The notes: generated by a model from the letters alone, not told the origin. 64,000 nucleotides of DNA from Candidatus Atabeyarchaeum deiterrae (GCA_037310415.1 CP147780.1:1888001-1952000); one strand, 5' to 3'. Shown: positions 9,480 to 28,312, numbered from the stretch's first letter. Translations and numbers: made by a program.

Positions 9480-10395
9480 GTCTATTAACCTCCTCCAGTA
9501 CACCCTCTCTAATCAAACTAGAAACAACTGGGCTGAGCTTTCTGCTGTTCTCAAGAGGATCTAATCCACAGAGACATGTGCGATCGCCTTCTCTCTGCAC
9601 ATAGAATTTGAATAATGGGACTCCAAACTCATCGTATATCTTCGATGAGATCTCAGCCACAGTCCGATCACAGATATTGTTGGTTTCGGGGTCAACGGGT
9701 ACTCCGAAAATAGATTTATACGCGAGTGGCTGCCCGAATAATGGCTGCACACAAACGGTGTAACGTCTATTCATAGTCAGCCTTCTCATGATGCCTCTGA
9801 GAGCAAGCTCAGAATTCACTATCCTGTAACCATAGCTTGGAAACGGTGTAACCGGGAAGATCAAGATAGGAAGATCAAACTGTGAGATCACGTCTTCAAC
9901 AGAGTCGGTGACCAGGTACGGCGAGACAGGTATTCCAGCCTTCAATGATCTCAGCAACAAGATAGGGGCCCTGTAGACGTCAAGGGCATCTGAACACTTC
10001 GGAATGACAGGGTTACCTAAGAGGTCAGCATGTAGGGACACATAGTAGCCCATCTTCATGTAGCGATAGTCCCGACTGACATTGACAACGAAAGAACCTC
10101 TTGGCGATGATCCCAGGAACTGCCTTGCGCCTATCGTTCTGACTCCTTCAAGTGACGGAATCGGAATGTCAGAGACGACTAACAAACTTGCAGTCTTGAC
10201 GACGGCTTCATCTCTGATGGAGTTTCTCAACTCATCATGGCATGAATCAGCACACTGATCAACAAAAGCCGACGAGCCAATCCTTATGCCATTGCCGCCA
10301 GGGTCGAGGTCGGAATCCGGGTCAGAACCCGTATCCGAATCTGAATCCGAATCGGAGTCCTCATCATCACCTGATGAGGAATCACCTTCACCCAC
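9469..10395 (-). CDS. RimK-like ATP-grasp N-terminal (RLAN) domain protein with Asp/Ser-rich N-terminal tail
   Basis: VVNVSRDYRYMKMGYYVSLHADLLGNPVIP is the RLAN signature; degenerate ATP-grasp-like C-half; overlaps the downstream ligase. Confidence 0.8.
   Translation of the reverse strand: MGEGDSSSGDDEDSDSDSDSDTGSDPDSDLDPGGNGIRIGSSAFVDQCADSCHDELRNSIRDEAVVKTASLLVVSDIPIPSLEGVRTIGARQFLGSSPRGSFVVNVSRDYRYMKMGYYVSLHADLLGNPVIPKCSDALDVYRAPILLLRSLKAGIPVSPYLVTDSVEDVISQFDLPILIFPVTPFPSYGYRIVNSELALRGIMRRLTMNRRYTVCVQPLFGQPLAYKSIFGVPVDPETNNICDRTVAEISSKIYDEFGVPLFKFYVQREGDRTCLCGLDPLENSRKLSPVVSSLIREGVLEEVNRHVQ
10301..10386 (-). repeat. Degenerate hexamer repeat (GAYTCN) encoding an Asp-Ser dipeptide tract
   Basis: Encodes GDSSSGDDEDSDSDSDSDTGSDPDSDLDP. 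Confidence 0.8.
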
Positions 10396-10925
10396 TACCT
10401 TTTACACTCCTTGCTTCAGATAGGACATCCAAACGTTCCAGTTGTCTATAGTATATCGACTATATTTAAGCTTTATCTCAAAAATATATGAGTAGGTCGA
10501 TTAATCCTCATGTTCTGCCGCAAATCGACACAAGTTGAGGATCTTGAGTTTAATCTCTTGATTGCAGGCCCCTCAATATTCCGATCAATACAGTATCGTG
10601 AAGTCCTTAGATGATAAACATGTTCCTGTGAAAAGCAAAGAATTCTGGTCCAGCGATGAAGATAGCTCTATAGGAGAGTCGTACGGATAGCGAATCTTAT
10701 TCATGGGATGTCTGGAAATGAGGAACACTAACATCAGCAAGACAAGAGATAGACAAGGTCACGAAATTGGATTATCCACGACAAGTCTCCTGAGACTGTT
10801 CAACAATGCAATGATCCGAGAAAGAGAAAGCTTTTCTATTCGGAGATTACTAAGGATTTGAAAACGACTTACCTTTCTTGCACCGCAATCATCGACCCGT
10901 ACCTTGCGAGCAGGCGAGTAAAGAC

Positions 10926-17491: not shown

Positions 17492-18427
17492 ATGAGGCTG
17501 ATGGCGGAATACAGGATCGGGGCGGGTGGCTGGTCATATTTTCTGGTACCAGGCATGGATCCGCTCTCCACCTATTCAAAAGCGTTCAATTTCGTCGAAG
17601 TGAACTCCACCTTCTACGAGACGCCCCCACTCGACCAAGTCTCTCAGTGGCGCAGGAAGGTCTCTAAGGACTTTGAGTTCTCCGTCAGAAGTCACAAAGA
17701 TCTGACCCACAAGTACAAGCTCGAGCCAGTGAAGCAGGCCCATGAAACGCTCTCGAAATCGATCCAGATATGCAACGTCCTTCAGGCGCAGATTCTTCAT
17801 GTGGAAACGCCACCAAGCCTCGTGATAACCAAACGAAAAGCGGCAGCCGCAAAAGATCTCTTAAGCTCATCTAACCTGAAAAGAACAAGGGTCGCTTGGG
17901 AAATAAGGGGAATGAAAGAGGAAAAGCAGCTTCCAGATTACCTGGTCAAAACAATGCAGGACCTGAATACTATTCACTGCGTTGACATTTCAAGGAGGGA
18001 CCCTGCGTTTGACACAGACATCATCTACACGAGACTCTTCGGCAAAGGCACACATAACATCTACCAATTTGACGACAAAGAACTCAAACAGATCCATGAG
18101 AAAACCAAGAAGACAAATGAGAAGAAGGTTGTGTTAGCCTTCCACGGCTTGAAAATGTACCTTGATGCCGCGAGATTCAAAACATACAACGAAACTCTCA
18201 GCTTCCCGCCCGTAACGAAATCTGTAGGACTCTCTTCCCTCGAGCAAGTCCTGAAAGAGGACGCGCGTTTTCCTGCGACAAGGGAAGAACTCATTAAACA
18301 TCAAGGATGGAAAGTATTTGACTTCACTCCATCAGAGAGAATCCACGCTTCAGAGGTCCTTCAAAAACTGCCCAGCCGAGTATATGAAAACATAGATGAA
18401 GTCGTGAAGACACTCGACCAGATGTAA
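17492..18427 (+). CDS. DUF72 protein (second paralog) with small C-terminal helical domain
   Basis: IGAGGWSY, FVEVNSTFY, LTHKY, YTRLFG; C-terminal FPATREELI...LP.R.Y...DEV resembles DUF2795. Confidence 0.82.
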   Translation: MRLMAEYRIGAGGWSYFLVPGMDPLSTYSKAFNFVEVNSTFYETPPLDQVSQWRRKVSKDFEFSVRSHKDLTHKYKLEPVKQAHETLSKSIQICNVLQAQILHVETPPSLVITKRKAAAAKDLLSSSNLKRTRVAWEIRGMKEEKQLPDYLVKTMQDLNTIHCVDISRRDPAFDTDIIYTRLFGKGTHNIYQFDDKELKQIHEKTKKTNEKKVVLAFHGLKMYLDAARFKTYNETLSFPPVTKSVGLSSLEQVLKEDARFPATREELIKHQGWKVFDFTPSERIHASEVLQKLPSRVYENIDEVVKTLDQM

Positions 18428-20995: not shown

Positions 20996-21276
20996 GTTAT
21001 CCTCTCTCCTTGCCTTCTTCGCTGTCGCGCACACGTTTAATCAACTTCTCAGTTCCGCTGATATTTGAGCTTTGGCATCGCGCGATGTGATTAGACAGGT
21101 CTTGTTTTCTCCCCCTTACCAGCGACCCTGCAACATTCGCCACTTCATCCATCAGCCTGATTCTCATGGAGTTCTGCTACCAAGCGTACCTACCTGTCAA
21201 CAATACTTGGTAAGCCGATGCCATCGATCATGGTTCAACCATTTTGACTGTCAGTCCCCCGCCCTATTCGTTTCAA

Positions 21277-21347
21277 TCTGCTAGTGACCAAAGTTACCGA
21301 CTTCACAAGGAAAATCTTAAATACACCCTGTTCTAACCTTATAACGG
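21277..21347 (+). promoter_or_regulatory. Promoter/operator cassette copy 1 (BRE-like AGGAAAA, TATA CTTAAATA, palindrome GTTCTAA-CC-TTATAAC)
   Basis: 65/71 identical to 25401-25471; ends just upstream of ATG 21355. Confidence 0.85.
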
Positions 21348-21354
21348 TGATATT

Positions 21355-22584
21355 ATGGTAGCTGTAAAGAGTAGCGTAAATTGGGGCTCCATGGAAGGGG
21401 CTCCTAAGTGGTATGGAAAAGGAACCCCCTACACAAAGCTTAATTTTCCATTTTCAGAGGAAGAGGAACTAGAGCTAGACAGATACTGCGAAAAGATCAA
21501 GGAGAACATCTCAAAAGACAAAATGACTCCTTGGGAAAGATGGAACGCCACAATAAAAGGCGAAGAAGTTGACACGATTAACGTACACTTACATCCCGAG
21601 ACAACATATTCAATCAAAGTGCTTGACGGCTACGCTAACGCCATTAAGCCAATAGACTCTTTCCGAAACCCGAAACTGTTTCTGAAGGCGCATCTAGCAA
21701 CCGCTGCAAGATTTGCTCCCCACAACCTACAGGTCTATTCATATAGTTATGGCGAAGCGGAATGGGGTGGCAAGGCTAAGCTACTGGACCTCGCTCATCC
21801 AGTAATGGTCGAACCCAGCGTAAAAACCATGGACGACGTCGACAGGCTAGTAGTCCCAGATCCGAAGAAAGATGGGACATATCCAGGTATGCTATGGGCT
21901 ATAAAAAAGATGAAGGAACTATTCAAGAAGAATGGACTCGCTGGCATCGTACCGATTTTGCCATCTTGTTGCACACCGGCCGAATGGATCATTCCAGAAT
22001 GCGTAAGAGGACTCAAGTTGGGCTTCCTTGACGCGATAAAGAACCCTGATATGTGGCACGCAATGATGAAGAAGACAACTGAGTTTGAAATCAGATTTGC
22101 TCAGGCACTATGGGAAGCCGGTGGGGACTACGTCTGGTGTTGCCAACACCATTCAGCATGGCCTCCAGATATTTTCAAGGAACGCATTGCGCCCTACTGC
22201 GCTGAGCTAGCTAAACGTGGTCCACTCGACTCTTGGTATTACGCTGCCAATCAGGAAACCCATGTGCAAATCATGGCTGACGCGGGCGGTTATGACCCCT
22301 GCAAATATCTCTTCTTCACAACGGACACGCCAGTAGAATTTGCAAGACAATTCACAAAGAGTATTGACAAGGCATATGTATGCTGCGAACCTGACAAAGC
22401 GCTTCTAACGGACTTACCGACGCTGGAAGCAACCGTCAAGGAGCACATCAAAATTGGAACTTCAATTCCAGGGGTGGGATTCGCAATGGCAGCCGGTGCA
22501 ATAGACTACTGGACGCCCCCCCAGAACGTCGATGCATTCGTCAAATACGTAAAGGAGTACGGGAAGTCTCCCACAAAGCCGTGA
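21355..22584 (+). CDS. Uroporphyrinogen decarboxylase/MtaA-superfamily methyltransferase (MT1/MtoB-like)
   Basis: MTPWERWNATIKGEEVD, DDVDRLVVPDPKKDG, TPPQNVDAFV; directly upstream of a corrinoid protein. Confidence 0.8.
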   Translation: MVAVKSSVNWGSMEGAPKWYGKGTPYTKLNFPFSEEEELELDRYCEKIKENISKDKMTPWERWNATIKGEEVDTINVHLHPETTYSIKVLDGYANAIKPIDSFRNPKLFLKAHLATAARFAPHNLQVYSYSYGEAEWGGKAKLLDLAHPVMVEPSVKTMDDVDRLVVPDPKKDGTYPGMLWAIKKMKELFKKNGLAGIVPILPSCCTPAEWIIPECVRGLKLGFLDAIKNPDMWHAMMKKTTEFEIRFAQALWEAGGDYVWCCQHHSAWPPDIFKERIAPYCAELAKRGPLDSWYYAANQETHVQIMADAGGYDPCKYLFFTTDTPVEFARQFTKSIDKAYVCCEPDKALLTDLPTLEATVKEHIKIGTSIPGVGFAMAAGAIDYWTPPQNVDAFVKYVKEYGKSPTKP

Positions 22585-22611
22585 AACCACGCGCATGTAT
22601 TGTATTGAGGT

Positions 22612-23280
22612 GTGTATAAAATGGCACAAGCACTTCTCGAACAGATCAAACAAGGAATCCTCGATGAAAACGAAGAACTAGTGAAAGAGTCGGTAAAGAA
22701 AGCCTTGGCTGCGAAGGTTTCGGCCTACGACATACTCATGAAAGGATTACAACCCGCCTTGATCGCATCAGGTGCAAAGTACGAGAAAAACCAATTCTTC
22801 CTCACTGACCTAATGATGGTAGGCGACATAACAACAGCTGTGATGGAAGTTCTAACGCCTCTCCTAAAAGCGCAGAAAGCCAAGAGCGCTGGGAAGGTGG
22901 TAATCGGCACAGTCGAGGGAGACGTTCATAACATCGGCAAAAGCATCGTGAGTTCGGTGCTTACTGGCGCTGGATATGAGGTTTATGACATCGGTGAGGA
23001 TCAACCGGCCAAGAACTTCGTCAGCAAGACTCAAGAGCTGAAAGCGGACATTGTGGGCGCTTCAGCGATCCTCGGCGGCGCGAAATTCCACGTTGGAGAA
23101 ATCAATGAGGAGCTCAAAAAGGCTGGAATCAGAGACAAAGTAGGGCTAATCTGCGGAGGCTGGGGATTCACAGAGAATGTAGCGAAAGGTTTCGGGGCTG
23201 ATCACTGTGGCGACGACGCTTGGGACGCTCTAAGAAAAACCGATGAGCTTATGAAAAAGCTGGGAAAGAAGGCCAAATAA
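22612..23280 (+). CDS. Cognate corrinoid (B12-binding) protein
   Basis: Helical cap (G.KYE..FFL.DLM), GTVEGDVHNIGK (DxHxxG), VGASA, ICGG. Confidence 0.92.
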   Translation: MYKMAQALLEQIKQGILDENEELVKESVKKALAAKVSAYDILMKGLQPALIASGAKYEKNQFFLTDLMMVGDITTAVMEVLTPLLKAQKAKSAGKVVIGTVEGDVHNIGKSIVSSVLTGAGYEVYDIGEDQPAKNFVSKTQELKADIVGASAILGGAKFHVGEINEELKKAGIRDKVGLICGGWGFTENVAKGFGADHCGDDAWDALRKTDELMKKLGKKAK

Positions 23281-23489
23281 CCCTAGCTTCCAACTTTTGT
23301 TTTTGCCATAATAATCGACTACTAGGCCACTTTAGGAAGTCATTCGCTGCGCACAGTTACCCAGGTGCGTAATGGTATCACAGATAAACATCACTCTGGA
23401 AGAACTCATCTACTAAGACAAACAGCCTCTAACCGGAGGATCATGCCTCAACTGAGAAGTCAAAGCATCTGCAAAATGAGGGAAATCAA

Positions 23490-23795
23490 ATGGATGTCTA
23501 TAGGTGTGTGAAGTGTGGAAACACTTATCCTACTAGGGAACAGGCACATCTTTGCGAAAACAGTCCCATCTCTCCATTCAAGTATGAAATCGGTGACACA
23601 GTCATAAGTGGATTTCAATCCCACATAACGAATAAGAAAATCACGTTGAATGGCAAAGTAGAGGAGAGATGGATACAAGGTCTCTCGAAGAAGGGAGAGT
23701 CCCCACACAGAAACATGTACAAACTACGAGTTGTCAGCAGTGAAAAAGGGCTTATTGCCATACGCTACGAGGAGCAAATAATCGGAAAGGCCTGA
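23490..23795 (+). CDS. Small hypothetical protein with N-terminal zinc finger
   Basis: YRCVKCGNTYPTREQAHLCE followed by a beta-rich FKYEIGDTV segment; GAGGG RBS. Confidence 0.65.
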   Translation: MDVYRCVKCGNTYPTREQAHLCENSPISPFKYEIGDTVISGFQSHITNKKITLNGKVEERWIQGLSKKGESPHRNMYKLRVVSSEKGLIAIRYEEQIIGKA

Positions 23796-23906
23796 AATAG
23801 TCCAATGGATGAGGTCTTAGGTCTTCAGCTCTTCGATGCAATCAAGATGAGAATGGCTCTTAGAAAACATGGTCAGAAGAAATCAACCTTAACTGAGGCG
23901 AAAGAT

Positions 23907-24314
23907 TTGGTCAGAGTAAACGACTATGAAGTTCGCGAAGGATTATATTACTCCGAAGATTACCTGTGGCTGCGCATCGAGGACGCATCAGTAAGAATAG
24001 GAATAATCGACTACGCGCAGAAACAACTGCATGAAATCGTTTACGTTGAGCTTCTCAGCGCAGGTGACACAATCAAACAAAATACGCCGTTAGGAACCGT
24101 GGAATCAGCAAAATCTGTCACTGATTTGGTTGCCCCCGTAAGCGGCACTATCGAGCAGATCAACGAAGAGGTGGTTGACAGGCCAGAGCTTATCAATGAT
24201 GATCCATATGGCAAGGGATGGCTTGTGATTGTTTCTCCAACCAACCTTGATGAGGAATTGAAGCGACTCATGCCTGACAAAAGGGCCGTGGAGTGGCATA
24301 AGAAGCTCACCTAA
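23907..24314 (+). CDS. gcvH: Glycine cleavage H-like lipoyl-carrier protein
   Basis: IGIIDYAQKQL, VESAKSVTD (lipoyl-Lys), APVSG, PELINDDPYGKGWL. Likely TTG start at 23907. Confidence 0.9.
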   Translation: MVRVNDYEVREGLYYSEDYLWLRIEDASVRIGIIDYAQKQLHEIVYVELLSAGDTIKQNTPLGTVESAKSVTDLVAPVSGTIEQINEEVVDRPELINDDPYGKGWLVIVSPTNLDEELKRLMPDKRAVEWHKKLT

Positions 24315-24375
24315 CGGGGGCCAATCACTTACCCAATCAACCGTTCTGGACAGAATTACTGGAGGTTGACACTAA

Positions 24376-25299
24376 TTGTTCAGATTTGAGAAAGAACAGC
24401 AAGTACTCGACATTGCGGGGGTCAAGGTAGGCGGTCAGCCAGGTGAATATCCAACGGTTCTCGTCGGAAGCATATTCTATGACAGACACAAAATAGTCAG
24501 CAATGAAGCGAAAGGTGAGTTTGACAAGAAACAGGCTGAACTGCTAATCAACAAAGTCAAAGAGATGTCTGAAAAAACCAAGAACCCGTTCTTCCTTGAC
24601 GTCGTCGCTAACACACCTGAAGCGCTAATTAAATATGTTGATTATATTTCTAGCGCAACAGACTGTCCATTCTTCATCGATGGCCCATCACCGAAAGTCA
24701 GGATACCAGCGACAAAACATGCCATGGAAATTGGGCTACGAGAAAGAGCGATTTACAACTCGATCGACTACCTCGTTACAGATGAGGAAGCAAAGGCTCT
24801 ACGGAATCTCAACGTAAAAAACGCCGTCGTAATGGCGTTTACCCCCAAGAAACCTCTAACCGAGGGGAGAGTAGATATTCTAAGGGGATACCCTGGGCAG
24901 AAAGGATTGCTGAGGTTCGCTGAGGAAGCAGGAGTCAAAAACACGCTTGTCGATACAGCTGTCACCGATGTTCCAGGCATAGGCATAGCCGCCAAAGCAA
25001 TTCATCTCGTCAAGAAAGAGTTTGGGTTGCCAACTGGATGTGGACCAGCGAATGCCGTGACCCAATGGAAAAGATTGAAAAAAGGTGAGTTCGGACAACA
25101 AGGATACAACGTCTGTTCTGGTGGCTCAGGAATAGTCACCCAAATGATGGGCGCCAACTTCGTTCTATTCGGTCCAATTGAGCTTTCTGAATCAGCGTTC
25201 ATAGCATGTGCCATGACAGATGCCATTACAGCTTACACGGCGAAAAGGATGGGAACGACCATAAAGGCAACGGATCACCCACTCTACAATATCTTCTAG
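24376..25299 (+). CDS. mtrH: MtrH-family pterin:corrinoid methyltransferase (stand-alone, MtoA/MtgA-like)
   Basis: FRFEKEQ, GGQPGEYPTVLVGSIFY, IYNSI, LVDTA, FGLPTGCG, FVLFGPIE; no other mtr subunits in the window. Confidence 0.9.
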   Translation: MFRFEKEQQVLDIAGVKVGGQPGEYPTVLVGSIFYDRHKIVSNEAKGEFDKKQAELLINKVKEMSEKTKNPFFLDVVANTPEALIKYVDYISSATDCPFFIDGPSPKVRIPATKHAMEIGLRERAIYNSIDYLVTDEEAKALRNLNVKNAVVMAFTPKKPLTEGRVDILRGYPGQKGLLRFAEEAGVKNTLVDTAVTDVPGIGIAAKAIHLVKKEFGLPTGCGPANAVTQWKRLKKGEFGQQGYNVCSGGSGIVTQMMGANFVLFGPIELSESAFIACAMTDAITAYTAKRMGTTIKATDHPLYNIF

Positions 25300-25400
25300 G
25301 CGCCCCCGCAGATTATCTTCGTTGATAAGGTATCGTATCGTTCCGATTACAGATGAACTCTTTTGGTCATCAAAGCTTCCCAGCTGCATATGCGTGCCAG

Positions 25401-25471
25401 TCTGCTGGTGACCAAGGTTAGCGACGACACAAGGAAAATCTTAAATATACCCTGTTCTAACCTTATAACGG
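25401..25471 (+). promoter_or_regulatory. Promoter/operator cassette copy 2
   Basis: 65/71 identical to 21277-21347; about 45 nt upstream of the SCP2 start. Confidence 0.85.
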
Positions 25472-25515
25472 CTACATATTGATGAATTCAATAAAAGTGG
25501 ATTAGAGGGATGTGT

Positions 25516-25869
25516 ATGTCTCAAAAGAAAGAAAAAGTGGCAGATGAAGTCATGAAGACCGTTCAGCAAAGGCTCAACGAAAGCAAGGACGCGACGAAAG
25601 GCTGGGGTAAGATGGTTCAACAGATTTTCAGTGATATCGGCATCGGATATCGCCTGAAATTCGCCAAGGATGGAACAGTGACAATGGAAAAAGTGAAGGC
25701 GTCAGAAATAAGGACAAAAGACGCAGCAGCAACGGTCACCGTCGATGTGGACACGATGAAGGACTTGATTGACGGGAAGCTACCACCAATGGAAGCAATG
25801 GGAACCGGAAAAATCAAGGTCGACGGGGATATGACTGCGCTATTGAAACTGTTACCAGCGTTTGGATGA
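25516..25869 (+). CDS. SCP2 sterol/lipid-binding domain protein
   Basis: AAATVTVDVDTMKDLIDGKLPPMEAMGTGKIKVDGDMTALLKL matches the SCP2 C-terminal signature. Confidence 0.88.
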   Translation: MSQKKEKVADEVMKTVQQRLNESKDATKGWGKMVQQIFSDIGIGYRLKFAKDGTVTMEKVKASEIRTKDAAATVTVDVDTMKDLIDGKLPPMEAMGTGKIKVDGDMTALLKLLPAFG

Positions 25870-26256
25870 AGAGTATCTTGAAAGATACGTTGACACTCAA
25901 ATGACTTCGAGCTCGCGGTCGACCGAAATTCTCCCTTTCTTCAATTCGCCTCCTCTCCTTTTTCATTGACAGGCTTAGAAACAAGGGGTAATTGGCAACG
26001 ATTCTCCTATCTATCGATGCCAACCCTGTAACTGATATAGCATCAATGAGTTAGGTGTAGATTCTGAACACTGCCATGACTGCTCCTGCGAGTGGGTTTG
26101 GTGTTGACTTTCGTAGCACCGCTCTGTGTTCTATTGCGACCGCGCCCATTAATATTTAACTTTGTGTCTGATAATAGACATAGAGTTGAGGGCGATGGGC
26201 AACACACTTCAATGTCCCCTAATAGGACCCTAACCCATAATCAAACTCCAGAATAG

Positions 26257-27027
26257 GTGTCGGAAATGCCACGCACGAAGCCTACAATGCCGTTGACAGG
26301 TAAGATCCCAGAACACCTGCCCGCAAGCGACATAGTTGTTCTAGCACAAGTTGCCGCTGGAAAGGAGGGTATCTCTGGAAAAGACATTGACAAAGCTCTA
26401 GATTCTCGAGGCGCAAGAAACTGGGCAGACGTCGGTTCATCATCAGTATACAACTGCTTAAGCAGACTTGAGATGTACACGTATGTCAAAGGTGAGCAGA
26501 GCAAGAGAGAGGGTCACGAAGTCAAACTCTATTACATGACTCAGATGGGCGCGGAAGTCCTCAAGAAGGAGCTGATATATCGACTTAGTACCCCCAAGAT
26601 AATTCATGACGAGCTAGACATATCCATAGCGCATCTGCCTCTGCTGAAGAAACAAGATGTGCTGAATGCTTTGGAGTCTTACATGGAACTGGTAGACGAG
26701 GGATTGCAGTATGCGGAATCCTTCATTTCCCCTATGAAACAGTTTGGTCTCCTGCTGCAGAACAGTCCCAGTCAGCGAATCGCAGACAGGACGATTGCAG
26801 ACATCGATCCTCGGGACGTGGAGTTGATTCTCGCTCTCCTAGAGCGCCCTTACCGAGAGCTGCGATCTAAGAAGCAGTGGCTCAGGGAGTTCATCGAGAA
26901 GGTCAAAGATGGCTACGTGTGGTGCGCAGATCAACAGCCAAAGGTGCAGGCAATCGCTCAGGACAAGACGCAGCGAGATCTCGAGCAGAAGAGGAAGGAG
27001 AGGGGCAAGAAAGGTATCCTGATATAA
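26257..27027 (+). CDS. PadR-like winged-helix transcription regulator
   Basis: RNWADVGSSSVYNCLSRLE...KLYYMTQMG..VLK, followed by a helical C-domain. Confidence 0.75.
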   Translation: MSEMPRTKPTMPLTGKIPEHLPASDIVVLAQVAAGKEGISGKDIDKALDSRGARNWADVGSSSVYNCLSRLEMYTYVKGEQSKREGHEVKLYYMTQMGAEVLKKELIYRLSTPKIIHDELDISIAHLPLLKKQDVLNALESYMELVDEGLQYAESFISPMKQFGLLLQNSPSQRIADRTIADIDPRDVELILALLERPYRELRSKKQWLREFIEKVKDGYVWCADQQPKVQAIAQDKTQRDLEQKRKERGKKGILI

Positions 27028-27043
27028 AGGAGACGGAGACCAA

Positions 27044-28312
27044 ATGTCGACCTCGAAATCGGATAAGAGAACTATCCAGAGCGAGAGAAAAGAGAAAGGC
27101 AAACTCCCAGAGGCTGATTACGGCAATATAGGAGTCACCGGTGAAGTATTCAGGTTAGAGAACTTCAAACACATTGCAGGGCACAACTGTCAGTTCTCCA
27201 GTCTACGGAAAACCTTTGCTTACCTCGGCTGGGATTATTCTGAGGATATGTTGTTGGGCTTGGCGTCGGCGCTGGGGATGCTTTACTGGGAAATGAAACT
27301 GATGCCAGTACCATTCATAGGCGCACTAAACGCAAAGGAACTGGAGATATTTGAGCGGACCGTCACACGACTAGGCGGAAAGGTGATACCTCACATAACC
27401 AGCTCACCGTTGAAAGCCCATCAAGAACTCAAAGACATGCTGAGGAGAGGAATGCCTGCTATCACGTTTGTTGATATGGCATTCTTGCCATATTTCTTCA
27501 GAGATGACGCGAAAATCCCATTTGAAGAAGCTCATTTTGGCGGCCATACTGTCGTCGTGTATGGAATAGATGAAAAAGGAGGAACTGTGTGTATTTCGGA
27601 CCGTCTCGCACACCCAGTCCAGGTGCCTCTGACGTATTTCCAGATGGCACGTGCAAGTGGATACCAGCCCTTCCCACCAAAGCACAAGCTTGTAGAGCTG
27701 AGACTTCCAGAAAAACCAAGATCACTCGAAGAGGTGCTTCCGGGAGCCATAAAAGCAAACCTCGAATGGATGACAAACCCACCGATATCCAACTTTGGTC
27801 TCAAAGGCTTACTGAGATTCAAGGAAGCATTTCCCAAATGGCATAAGACGTATGACGCTGACAAGCTGCTGCTGGCACTGTCAAGCACGTTTATCTACAT
27901 GGAAACTGGAGGCAGCGGAGGAGCATGGTGCAGAGTGATGTACTCACGATTCTTGAAGGAAGCTTCCGAAGCGCTACACCAGCCTAAGCTCGCCGAAGTA
28001 GCCAGAATTTTCGAAGATGAGGTTCAGGCAATCAGAGAACTAGAGTCAACAATCCTCCCAGACGAATTAGCGAACATGGCTCGGATAAGAGAAATATTCA
28101 TTGAGAGCAACAGAATTCAAGAGCAAATGCCAAACGACTATAGGCACAGGCTCAGAGAACTCGACGACAAAATGAGAGCCGCAGTCAACGCAGCGAAAGA
28201 AGACGACTACCAAAAGTACGCGCCTCAAATTTCAAAAGTGCAAGCAGCAATTCAGAAAGTTCACGACCTAGAATCAAAGGCATGGAACGAAATGAAAGTC
28301 ATACCACTCTAA
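27044..28312 (+). CDS. BtrH N-terminal-domain protein (papain-like/C39 fold) with DUF4872-like C-terminus
   Basis: HNCQFSSLR, SEDMLLGL, VDMAFLPY, HFGGHTVVVYG, ISD, GGSGG..R.MY.RFL.EA. Confidence 0.82.
   Translation: MSTSKSDKRTIQSERKEKGKLPEADYGNIGVTGEVFRLENFKHIAGHNCQFSSLRKTFAYLGWDYSEDMLLGLASALGMLYWEMKLMPVPFIGALNAKELEIFERTVTRLGGKVIPHITSSPLKAHQELKDMLRRGMPAITFVDMAFLPYFFRDDAKIPFEEAHFGGHTVVVYGIDEKGGTVCISDRLAHPVQVPLTYFQMARASGYQPFPPKHKLVELRLPEKPRSLEEVLPGAIKANLEWMTNPPISNFGLKGLLRFKEAFPKWHKTYDADKLLLALSSTFIYMETGGSGGAWCRVMYSRFLKEASEALHQPKLAEVARIFEDEVQAIRELESTILPDELANMARIREIFIESNRIQEQMPNDYRHRLRELDDKMRAAVNAAKEDDYQKYAPQISKVQAAIQKVHDLESKAWNEMKVIPL

Follow-up and report, generated by a model that had tools for sequence, protein, structure and literature searches.

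A promoter-like element duplicated upstream of a corrinoid methyltransferase operon and of a free-standing SCP2 gene in Candidatus Atabeyarchaeum deiterrae

Corrinoid systems of the O-demethylase type are thought to be a route for anaerobes, including the very abundant Bathyarchaeia, to lignin-derived methoxy groups. Current models of the pathway comprise a methyltransferase MT1, a corrinoid protein, a methyltransferase MT2, an activator and transporters. The MtoABCD methoxydotrophy system was described for Methermicoccus shengliensis and Archaeoglobus fulgidus, and mtoABC homologues were reported in Bathyarchaeota (PMC8630106, PMC8359953). Furthermore, a Bathyarchaeia-specific lignin O-demethylase cluster of the MtgB type, thought to act on methoxylated aromatics, is known from Candidatus Baizosediminiarchaeum ligniniphilus; SCP2 is unmentioned in the corresponding paper (PMC10989822).

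The window analyzed in this study, a stretch of 64,000 nucleotides from the genome of Candidatus Atabeyarchaeum deiterrae (GCA_037310415.1, CP147780.1:1888001-1952000), an uncultured, Bathyarchaeia-like wetland archaeon, encodes a corrinoid methyltransferase operon followed by a single-gene SCP2 unit. The following features were annotated:

21265-21347, + strand: promoter cassette copy 1, 83 nt, from the repeat search, ending 7 nt 5' of the MT1 start codon
21308-21314 (copy 1) and 25432-25438 (copy 2), + strand: BRE-like AGGAAAA, from the sequence
21316-21323 (copy 1) and 25440-25447 (copy 2), + strand: TATA-like CTTAAATA, from the sequence
21330-21345 (copy 1) and 25454-25469 (copy 2), + strand: imperfect palindrome GTTCTAA-CC-TTATAAC, GTTCTAACCTTATAAC, candidate operator, 3' of TATA and 5' of the predicted start
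21355-22584, + strand: MT1, methyltransferase of the URO-D/MtaA superfamily, 409 aa (Pfam URO-D 3.8e-19, residues 61-402)
22612-23280, + strand: corrinoid protein (B12-binding_2 and B12-binding)
23490-23795, + strand: u101, small conserved Cys protein (CxxC...C), no family assigned
23805-24314, + strand: GcvH-like lipoyl carrier, lipoyl-lysine context VESAKS kept
24376-25299, + strand: MtrH-family methyltransferase (MT2, MtoA/MtgA-like; MtrH 1.2e-96)
25389-25471, + strand: promoter cassette copy 2, 83 nt, orthologous in position to the one cassette that precedes SCP2 in each of the two sister-genus genomes (G001, G002)
25516-25869, + strand: SCP2-fold protein, 117 aa, single-gene unit behind copy 2 (ATG at 25516 preferred over 25510)
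26164-26181: conserved palindrome GTGTC-N8-GACAT upstream of the PadR-like gene, different from the duplicated palindrome
26257-27027, + strand: PadR-like regulator, 3' neighbour of SCP2 in each of the three family genomes

Annotation confirmed the gene order given in a preliminary description of this DNA, in which copy 1 precedes a URO-D-family methyltransferase and a corrinoid protein and copy 2 precedes SCP2. In its architecture, the system resembles MtoABCD, comprising an MT1 of ~46-48 kDa in the MtaA/UroD-related group, a cognate corrinoid protein of 22 kDa, an MtrH-family MT2 within the cluster and a RACo-type activator in the genome; MT1 is assigned at the level of the URO-D superfamily, and orthology to MtoB/MtvB would be putative. 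Unlike in MtoABCD, there is no MFS transporter in the cluster, and RACo (genome positions 2742209-2744119) is encoded outside of it, 0.83 Mb away, with 51% identity to the RACo that is part of the cluster at a Bathyarchaeia locus (L017). SCP2, the lipoyl GcvH-like protein and u101 are further differences, since they are unmentioned for Mto clusters (PMC8630106, PMC8359953). The system is classified as Mto-like, with action on methoxylated aromatics as a putative function. MtgC-like and MtgA-like partners of corrinoid methyl transfer are common to this locus and the Ca. B. ligniniphilus cluster, whereas MT1 is MtgB of the MttB superfamily in the latter and a URO-D superfamily member here. Scores of the corrinoid protein on the MtgC model and of MtrH on the MtgA model were below the cut-offs. 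For MT1, NCBIfam returned sub-threshold MtaA/CmuA matches only, the profile of its clade matched the MtaA structure 4ay7 at 2e-8, and its nearest relatives beyond the clade are Chloroflexota and Desulfosarcina proteins with 30-35% identity. For u101, neither a family nor an informative structural neighbour was found. The G+C content of the operon matches that of the genome. The corrinoid gene is followed by a T-rich stretch (23294-23305) and a gap of 209 nt, which may divide the operon in two; if so, u101, GcvH and MtrH would not necessarily depend on copy 1.

The SCP2 assignment is based on the Pfam SCP2 model (1.3e-9, 38.7 bits against a cut-off of 21.3), accompanied by a match to Alkyl_sulf_C (1.3e-5) and to the mosquito SCP2 structures PDB 2ksh and 1pz4 (E 1.3e-4). 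The Atlas model of the protein reached a pTM of 0.82, and its structural neighbours (TM 0.72-0.74) carry SCP2 or Alkyl_sulf_C. It therefore belongs to the same fold family as SCP2-type domains recruiting hydrophobic substrates, such as the C-terminal alkylsulfatase domain Alkyl_sulf_C and the eukaryotic/insect SCP2 domains. In contrast to those domains, it is a free-standing protein of 117 aa encoded together with corrinoid methyltransferase genes, and its ligand binding is putative. Structure prediction of a complex of MT1 and SCP2 yielded a score of 0.48, compared to 0.01 for the best of three controls, with runs agreeing in at least 92% of contacts and a partner pLDDT of at least 85. Of 80 solved complexes, 58 pass the applied mark, compared to 2 of 110 mismatched pairs; with scores up to 0.60, however, only 7 of the 80 solved complexes do so, as do both passing mismatches, so that the prediction lends weak support to an interaction. 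Downstream of SCP2, a conserved T5 stretch is located at 25955-25968.

The repeat search revealed one repeat family in the window, namely the two cassettes, which are direct copies with a spacing of 4124 nt and 73 of 83 identical positions (88%). Within a narrower core of 71 nt (21277-21347 and 25401-25471), 65 positions are identical; the 71-nt duplication with six differences and unrelated genes downstream, as initially described, was thus reproduced by repeat search and gene annotation. The BRE-like motif, the TATA box and the palindrome also proved to be present in both copies, the palindrome being weak. BRE and TATA form the string AGGAAAA-TC-TTAAATA (21308-21323 and 25432-25447) before the gene start, as expected for archaeal promoters, and similar strings occur 5' of tRNA genes of the same genome, e.g., AGAAAACTTAATAA; this comparison is qualitative, because ARAGORN gave only 24 tRNA genes, some of them doubtful. 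From the TATA position, transcription is predicted to start at ~21346 and ~25470, and the identity of the copies stops at 21347 and 25471, i.e., at +2 of this site. The predicted start leaves ~9 nt before the ATG of MT1, whereas Shine-Dalgarno leaders are the rule in this genome; a histogram of TATA positions for 2110 long ORFs was too sparse to give a typical promoter-to-start distance.

Nine of the ten differences between the copies fall into the upstream 39 nt and one into the last 44 nt (Fisher p = 0.005), which extend from BRE/TATA to the predicted start site. Before SCP2, this 44-nt stretch is nearly invariant in the two genomes of the sister genus. Across four copies from three genomes and two genera, a core of ~42 nt contains only two variable columns, compared to a mean column identity of 82% in the adjoining SCP2-PadR spacer. 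Because the differences cluster upstream and the 44-nt stretch is near-invariant across genera, the element appears to be a selected promoter, and comparison of the copies indicates selective conservation of the duplicated core. Promoter function and the start site are predicted from the sequence. The palindrome is invariant in all four copies; with pairing in 6 of 8 arm positions, however, it does not by itself exceed what AT-rich promoter DNA would yield by chance. The features of weight are the duplication and the cross-genus invariance, not the palindrome itself. An alternative cause of the identical core would be gene conversion between the copies.

In the TrmB/TGM regulon of Thermococcales, one operator is repeated in several promoters. 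The locus described here resembles this regulon in that transcription units belonging to the same pathway each have one common cis-element in their core promoter, but differs in that the whole core promoter, not just a short operator, is duplicated and in that the element occurs exactly twice.

Both sister-genus genomes keep the order promoter-SCP2-PadR with a single copy of the cassette, and no MT1, u101 or close MtrH orthologue was found in them. Their SCP2 proteins show 92-96% identity. SCP2 can thus persist alone, although the gene of G001 has an in-frame TAG. As judged by orthology, the position of the element in the family is before the SCP2 gene. In the sister genus, weaker homology of the SCP2 upstream flank to copy 1 continues to ~21222, and in both copies such weaker homology to this flank extends over another ~55 nt upstream, from which it follows that a longer segment was duplicated. 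A comparison of the 500 nt preceding copy 1 with the genome, the relatives and the sister genus gave no similar sequence. Diagnostic positions of the repeat are mixed as to gain versus loss of the operon.

Among Bathyarchaeia relatives, SCP2 orthologues (61-69% identity) reside within MT1-Cor-TrmB-SCP2-u101-RACo-SIP-MtrH clusters (L017, L022, L032-L035), where u101 adjoins SCP2, and SCP2 lies inside the cluster at all six sufficiently long loci. Moreover, SCP2-like genes were found beside URO-D, B12-binding, GcvH, MtrH or RACo genes on six further contigs (L038, L076, L077, L078, L079, L080). Comparison of gene order thus shows the SCP2-methyltransferase neighbourhood to be conserved. Co-occurrence of SCP2 with the MT1 clade, suggested beforehand as a check, holds for these loci but not in the strict sense, as the sister genus lacks the operon. 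Both types are rare: among 400 sampled genomes of the phylum, the MT1 clade was present in one and this SCP2 type in three. In the relatives, a different element of ~38 nt is common to the mtrH-divergent spacer and the region upstream of SCP2, and a related motif also precedes MT1, so that an element is shared by up to three upstream regions; AGTGACCAAAGTTAC only partly resembles their AGTTACAAATGTTCC-type motif. A link of SCP2 with corrinoid methyltransferases was not described in the literature searched, in agreement with the earlier statement that no system with this combination is known.

With moderate confidence, we favour the reading that the SCP2-type core promoter was duplicated before the corrinoid operon, placing both units under shared control, with SCP2 as an accessory component. 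The repeat would represent an archaeal core promoter, composed of BRE/TATA and a 16-bp site proximal to the start site and ending at ~+2, of which a second copy in this genome lies directly before the operon, 4.1 kb upstream. With one copy before each unit, both transcription units would start from near-identical promoters and should answer to one common DNA-binding factor, so that SCP2 would be produced in concert with the methyl-transfer enzymes; co-regulation through a putative repressor site is suggested by the shared sequence. SCP2 would then be a genuine accessory component of the Mto-like system (UroD-like MT1, corrinoid protein, MtrH-like MT2, RACo elsewhere), most likely holding a poorly soluble methyl donor or the demethylated product for MT1, so that its cargo is presumably hydrophobic. 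A more far-reaching interpretation is tentative and, on balance, doubtful: SCP2 might be the substrate-presenting subunit of an undescribed, lipoyl-carrying corrinoid methyltransferase family (UroD-like MT1, corrinoid protein, SCP2, GcvH-like protein, MtrH-like MT2 and RACo) of Bathyarchaeia, Desulfosarcina, Chloroflexota and other anaerobes, which would demethylate poorly soluble methyl ethers or lipophilic methyl donors and of which the duplicated promoter would be a regulatory trace. A conserved free-standing SCP2 in such clusters, often with a lipoylated H-protein, points to components missing from current pathway models and hints at hydrophobic substrates. Furthermore, the two-copy promoter offers a simple handle: the 44-nt DNA should serve as probe for the regulator, and a single inducing compound should activate the two units together, which would identify the substrate.

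As the regulator, the PadR-like protein encoded downstream of SCP2 had been proposed, which fared less well. That it binds the duplicated palindrome is rather unlikely, although SCP2 and PadR are neighbours in each of the three family genomes and a regulator gene beside SCP2 is also the rule in relatives, where it encodes a TrmB-family protein. The region upstream of PadR carries its own conserved palindrome (26164-26181). Bacterial PadR proteins recognize palindromes of the ATGT-N8-ACAT type, which this site resembles and the duplicated site does not. Moreover, no similarity between PadR and the TrmB of the relatives was detectable. A TrmB orthologue was not found in the genome, the best tblastn matches being 21% and 30% identical and located elsewhere, and the locus differs in this respect from the TrmB-controlled cluster type of the Bathyarchaeia relatives. 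The half-site pattern GTTNTAA-N2-TTANAAC occurs in the genome only at the two copies. Allowing up to three mismatches, the operator 16-mer has eight other genome matches, compared to a rough chance estimate of ~20, and none of them precedes a methyltransferase or RACo gene.

It is unlikely that the repeat is a structural scar of operon placement, left by Campbell-type integration of a circle with a homologous promoter segment or by tandem duplication, without selected regulatory meaning, the copies being alike because they are recent or because of gene conversion. Located as direct repeats on either side of the operon, they would mainly make it excisable, and the sister genus shows what recombination between them would leave, namely a single copy and no operon. 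The ~55 nt of additional upstream homology common to both copies and the 5' end of MT1, which is remodelled at the junction and encodes an N-terminal extension of six residues that the orthologues lack, fit this explanation as well. However, the clustering of differences outside the core argues against it, and since the core is near-invariant across genera, purifying selection on the sequence now before MT1 is indicated. Moreover, copy 1 extends as far as the predicted start site, and no BRE/TATA other than that of copy 1 is recognizable upstream of MT1. The two explanations are compatible, as a scar may also work as a promoter.

A transcribed RNA element common to the two mRNAs (leader, small RNA or ligand-sensing RNA) instead of a promoter is very improbable. 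Shine-Dalgarno-led mRNAs dominate in the genome, as this explanation would have it, but no Rfam match covering the element was obtained up to an E-value of 1, and fold energies were no better than those of shuffles (z = +1.07, -0.69, -0.86), leaving it unsupported. In addition, no TATA-like sequence was seen further upstream in either copy, and the conserved part stops at the predicted start of transcription.

A dispersed mobile repeat (MITE) or an assembly artefact, named at the outset as possible refutations, can be dismissed: the complete single-contig genome (2,756,679 bases) holds only two copies of the 20-mer CTGTTCTAACCTTATAACGG even with three mismatches allowed (two in the window versus 0.00 expected), inverted-repeat termini are absent from the element, and both copies are bridged by independent contigs. 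BLAST likewise gave no third match, and the genome-wide search for repeat and palindrome placed the two copies only before MT1 and SCP2, in line with the initial view of a two-copy promoter-like cassette. Scans of public metagenome contigs with the 39-nt and 22-nt core gave no match, such scans possibly omitting records near the window's own genome. A single contig of run X1 covers 21009-26300 with zero differences, and each copy is bridged by contigs of run X3, from another study, and X4. From a third study (X7), pieces of a 90-95%-alike organism with the same layout, corresponding to 24806-25461 and 21308-21497, end or start within the shared core. In a ~92%-alike soil relative, a second copy is likewise located in front of the corrinoid methyltransferase operon.

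Repeat search detected a single repeat family at the locus, consisting of two direct copies of an 83-nt promoter-like cassette (21265–21347 and 25389–25471, identity 73/83). The copies precede the operon encoding the UroD-like methyltransferase MT1 (copy 1) and the gene encoding the SCP2-fold protein (copy 2). The duplicated 71-nt promoter/operator reported in the preliminary description, with six differences between the copies, was thus confirmed by the repeat search and by independent contigs. The genes concerned are listed below.

Genes associated with the two cassette copies
21355–22584, after copy 1: MT1, URO-D-superfamily methyltransferase, 409 aa
22612–23280, after copy 1: corrinoid protein
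23490–23795, after copy 1: u101, small Cys protein, 101 aa, no family, conserved CxxC...C
23805–24314, after copy 1: GcvH-like protein, lipoyl-lysine context VESAKS kept
24376–25299, after copy 1: MtrH-family methyltransferase (MT2)
25516–25869, after copy 2: SCP2-fold protein, 117 aa
2742209–2744119 of the window's own genome, far from the operon: RACo-type activator

The SCP2 gene has a T5 stretch behind it that three genomes conserve; the genes next in line are PadR-like, BtrH_N/DUF4872 and AlkD-like, in this order. The MT1-clade profile matched the MtaA structure 4ay7 at 2e-8.

The genome harboring the window is represented by a single contig of 2,756,679 bases featuring a G+C content of 46.6% and an archaeal 16S rRNA gene; database relatives of its proteins are "Candidatus Bathyarchaeota/Bathyarchaeia" records. 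The 20-mer comprising the palindrome of the cassette occurs twice (0.00 expected), and no third copy was detected in the whole genome by BLAST or with up to three mismatches in 20. A MITE or generic repeat, considered in the preliminary description, is excluded because no further copy exists in the genome. Likewise, an assembly artefact was ruled out by contigs from separate studies: one contig of sequencing run X1 spans 21009–26300 with zero differences, and contigs bridging each copy came from X3, which belongs to another study, and from X4. In run X7 (third study), containing an organism 90–95% alike to the window, one contig (24806–25461) runs past mtrH and stops within the shared core, and another (21308–21497) begins within the core ahead of MT1, as would be expected of an assembly graph containing an exact repeat.

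The ten differences separating the copies are unevenly distributed: nine are located in the first 39 nt and only one in the last 44 nt (21304–21347 in copy 1; Fisher p = 0.005). In the collection searched, the class is small and comprises three species genomes, namely G000 (the window's own genome) and, from the sister genus, the complete genome G001 as well as G002, the latter two each encoding one copy of the element ahead of their own SCP2 gene. Four-way alignment from AGGAAAATCT to ACGG revealed two variable columns in approximately 42, with far more variable flanks; for comparison, the nearby SCP2–PadR spacer showed 82% mean column identity. Copy 1 features the TATA-like CTTAAATA at 21316–21323, and the BRE/TATA string resembles tRNA-gene upstream sequences in G000. 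Archaeal TATA boxes are usually located about 26 nt ahead of the start site, which places the predicted start near 21346 (near 25470 in copy 2). Identity between the copies stops at 21347; therefore, exactly the non-transcribed promoter appears to have been copied, whereas the predicted leaders differ (about 9 nt to the ATG of MT1 versus about 45 nt, including a GAGGG Shine-Dalgarno-like site, for SCP2). Regarding an RNA element, neither an Rfam family nor a fold signal was found for the repeat. The palindrome GTTCTAA-CC-TTATAAC (21330–21345) resides between the TATA box and the predicted start site, the classical position of archaeal repressors. Its symmetry is weak (6/8), and the evidence for a candidate operator is its invariance rather than its symmetry. 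As judged from sequence comparison, the duplicated element is probably a selected promoter.

Compared to its orthologues, MT1 possesses six extra N-terminal residues (21355–21375), and AGC stands where the orthologues have their start codon (MVNWG), so the MT1 5' end was apparently reshaped where it meets the copied promoter. Furthermore, the 209-nt gap 3' of the corrinoid gene (23281–23489) opens with CTTTTGTTTTTG (23294–23305), which may act as an archaeal terminator and would then divide the five genes into two transcription units.

The MT1 clade is rare, showing eight relatives (54–73% identity) among 5.8 billion proteins and four carrier species, all Bathyarchaeia, among 185,579 species genomes. 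Within a 400-genome sample of the phylum, the clade was found in G000 only and the window's SCP2 type in 3/400. Six archaeal loci were long enough for this comparison (L017, L022, L032–L035), and all of them feature the order MT1, corrinoid protein, TrmB, SCP2 (61–69% identity to the window's SCP2), u101, RACo and SIP-like, with MtrH on the opposite strand. On the shorter contig L021, MT1 and the corrinoid gene are followed by a polyprenyl synthetase gene (9754–10812), and SCP2 was not found within the 2.3 kb available; an amine-oxidase/phytoene-desaturase-like gene precedes the pair in place of the usual cluster. In a Desulfosarcina genome (L038), an SCP2-like gene resides immediately 5' of an MT1 paralogue. 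Moreover, distant SCP2-like genes (31–58% identity) on the longest contigs, chosen disregarding their content, were located beside corrinoid-system genes in 5/5 cases.

Gene content around distant SCP2-like genes
L076: URO-D, B12-binding, SCP2, GcvH, MtrH, lipoate ligase, radical SAM, dihydrolipoamide-dehydrogenase-like, RACo
L077: GcvH, MtrH, RACo, radical SAM, FAD oxidase, CCG protein, SCP2
L078: B12-binding, URO-D, B12-binding, ..., FAD oxidase, CCG protein, SCP2, GcvH
L079: B12-binding, RACo, ..., SCP2
L080: TrmB, SCP2, RACo

Complex prediction for MT1 and SCP2 yielded a score of 0.48, compared with 0.01 for the highest-scoring of three controls, with runs agreeing in at least 92% of contacts and a partner pLDDT of at least 85. 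This represents weak support: of 80 solved complexes, 58 passed the mark, as did 2 of 110 mismatched pairs, but the passes at scores up to 0.60 comprised only seven of these solved complexes and both of the mismatches.

Co-occurrence of SCP2 with this methyltransferase clade, a check proposed in the preliminary description, accordingly holds inside the cluster at the six long loci and beside corrinoid genes elsewhere. The regulon idea and the SCP2–methyltransferase link, both deduced from genome sequences, appear well supported by comparative evidence, and a role of SCP2 in carrying hydrophobic cargo is hypothesized.

An element of about 38 nt is common to the region upstream of SCP2 and the mtrH-divergent spacer in these six archaeal relatives, AGT(T/A)ACAAATGTTCCAAAC..TTAACTAC, which differs from the duplicated promoter of G000; a related AGTTACAAAAGTAAATTCC is located ahead of the TATA box upstream of MT1. 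A TrmB-family gene, of which two weak homologues but no orthologue were found in G000, resides within these clusters. Thus, the relatives seem to have evolved a promoter-sequence tie between SCP2 and the methyltransferase genes as well, here adjoining a TrmB-family gene. The two occurrences of the relatives' element (AGTNACAAATGTTCCAAAC..TTAACTAC; L017:13050–13100 and about 18331–18369, likewise in L022 and L032–L035) are oriented identically, and the mtrH spacer borders an ORF of 61–68 aa.

The PadR-like gene, proposed earlier as possible controller, follows SCP2 in 3/3 genomes (G000, G001, G002). Its upstream region contains a palindrome different from the duplicated one, GTGTCTGATAATAGACAT (GTGTC-N8-GACAT, 26164–26181), kept in G001 and G002, which looks like an autoregulatory site and speaks against PadR control of the duplicated site. 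The duplicated palindrome was found nowhere else in G000, not even ahead of the RACo gene. PadR is accordingly a hypothetical regulator. A conserved TATA-like string of its own precedes the PadR palindrome (26149–26181).

In G001 and G002, the promoter–SCP2–PadR segment has the reverse orientation between unchanged neighbours (zinc-ribbon gene and AlkD), and BtrH_N/DUF4872 (window 27044–28312) is reduced to its first approximately 70 codons (L026:14113–14289; L027:1927–2087), with no full copy elsewhere in either genome. The sister-genus layout is therefore derived, inversion and truncation marking a shared rearrangement. Orthologues of MT1 and u101 are absent from both genomes, and their MtrH shows only 53% identity. 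In G001, codon 14 of SCP2 (L026:12554–12910) is an in-frame TAG instead of the AAG of G000, which could reflect pseudogenization, an error in sequencing or codon recoding. Both G000 copies extend into a further approximately 55 nt of weaker homology to the sister-genus flank, from which about 23 nt are deleted in copy 1. Identities to the SPRUCE-type orthologues are 62–73% for MT1, MtrH and SCP2, 70% for EF-2 and 38% for RsmB. The data fit either of two histories: an ancestor possessing both units, with the operon lost in the sister genus (direct-repeat recombination being an obvious route), or an operon that entered the G000 lineage later and came to lie behind a copied SCP2 promoter.

In architecture, the set of MT1, corrinoid protein, MtrH-type MT2 and RACo matches the MtoABCD system of methoxydotrophy (PMC8630106, PMC8359953), a likeness in gene set. 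Compared to the known Mto-like corrinoid methyltransferase systems, the present one is a variant with accessory SCP2, lipoyl GcvH-like and u101 genes, for which the literature searched contained no description. Literature searches pairing SCP2 or sterol carrier protein with corrinoid methyltransferases retrieved no relevant paper, and SCP2 is not mentioned in the Bathyarchaeia, Mto and mlp-cluster papers searched, in agreement with the preliminary description, which knew of no system with this combination.

In u101, C6, C9, C22, H45 and H73 are invariant, and the gene adjoins SCP2 in the relatives' clusters. The GcvH-like lipoyl protein (window 23805–24314) recurs in bacterial homologous clusters (L037, L038, L040, L041, L046, L055, L076, L077, L078), usually encoded directly 5' of MtrH. 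It is found near radical-SAM genes (L076, L077), near an FAD-oxidase and CCG (HdrD-like) pair (L038, L077, L078) and, in L076, also with lipoate-ligase (LplA-B_cat) and dihydrolipoamide-dehydrogenase-like genes. This gene context suggests lipoate-dependent chemistry in the family of these corrinoid systems.
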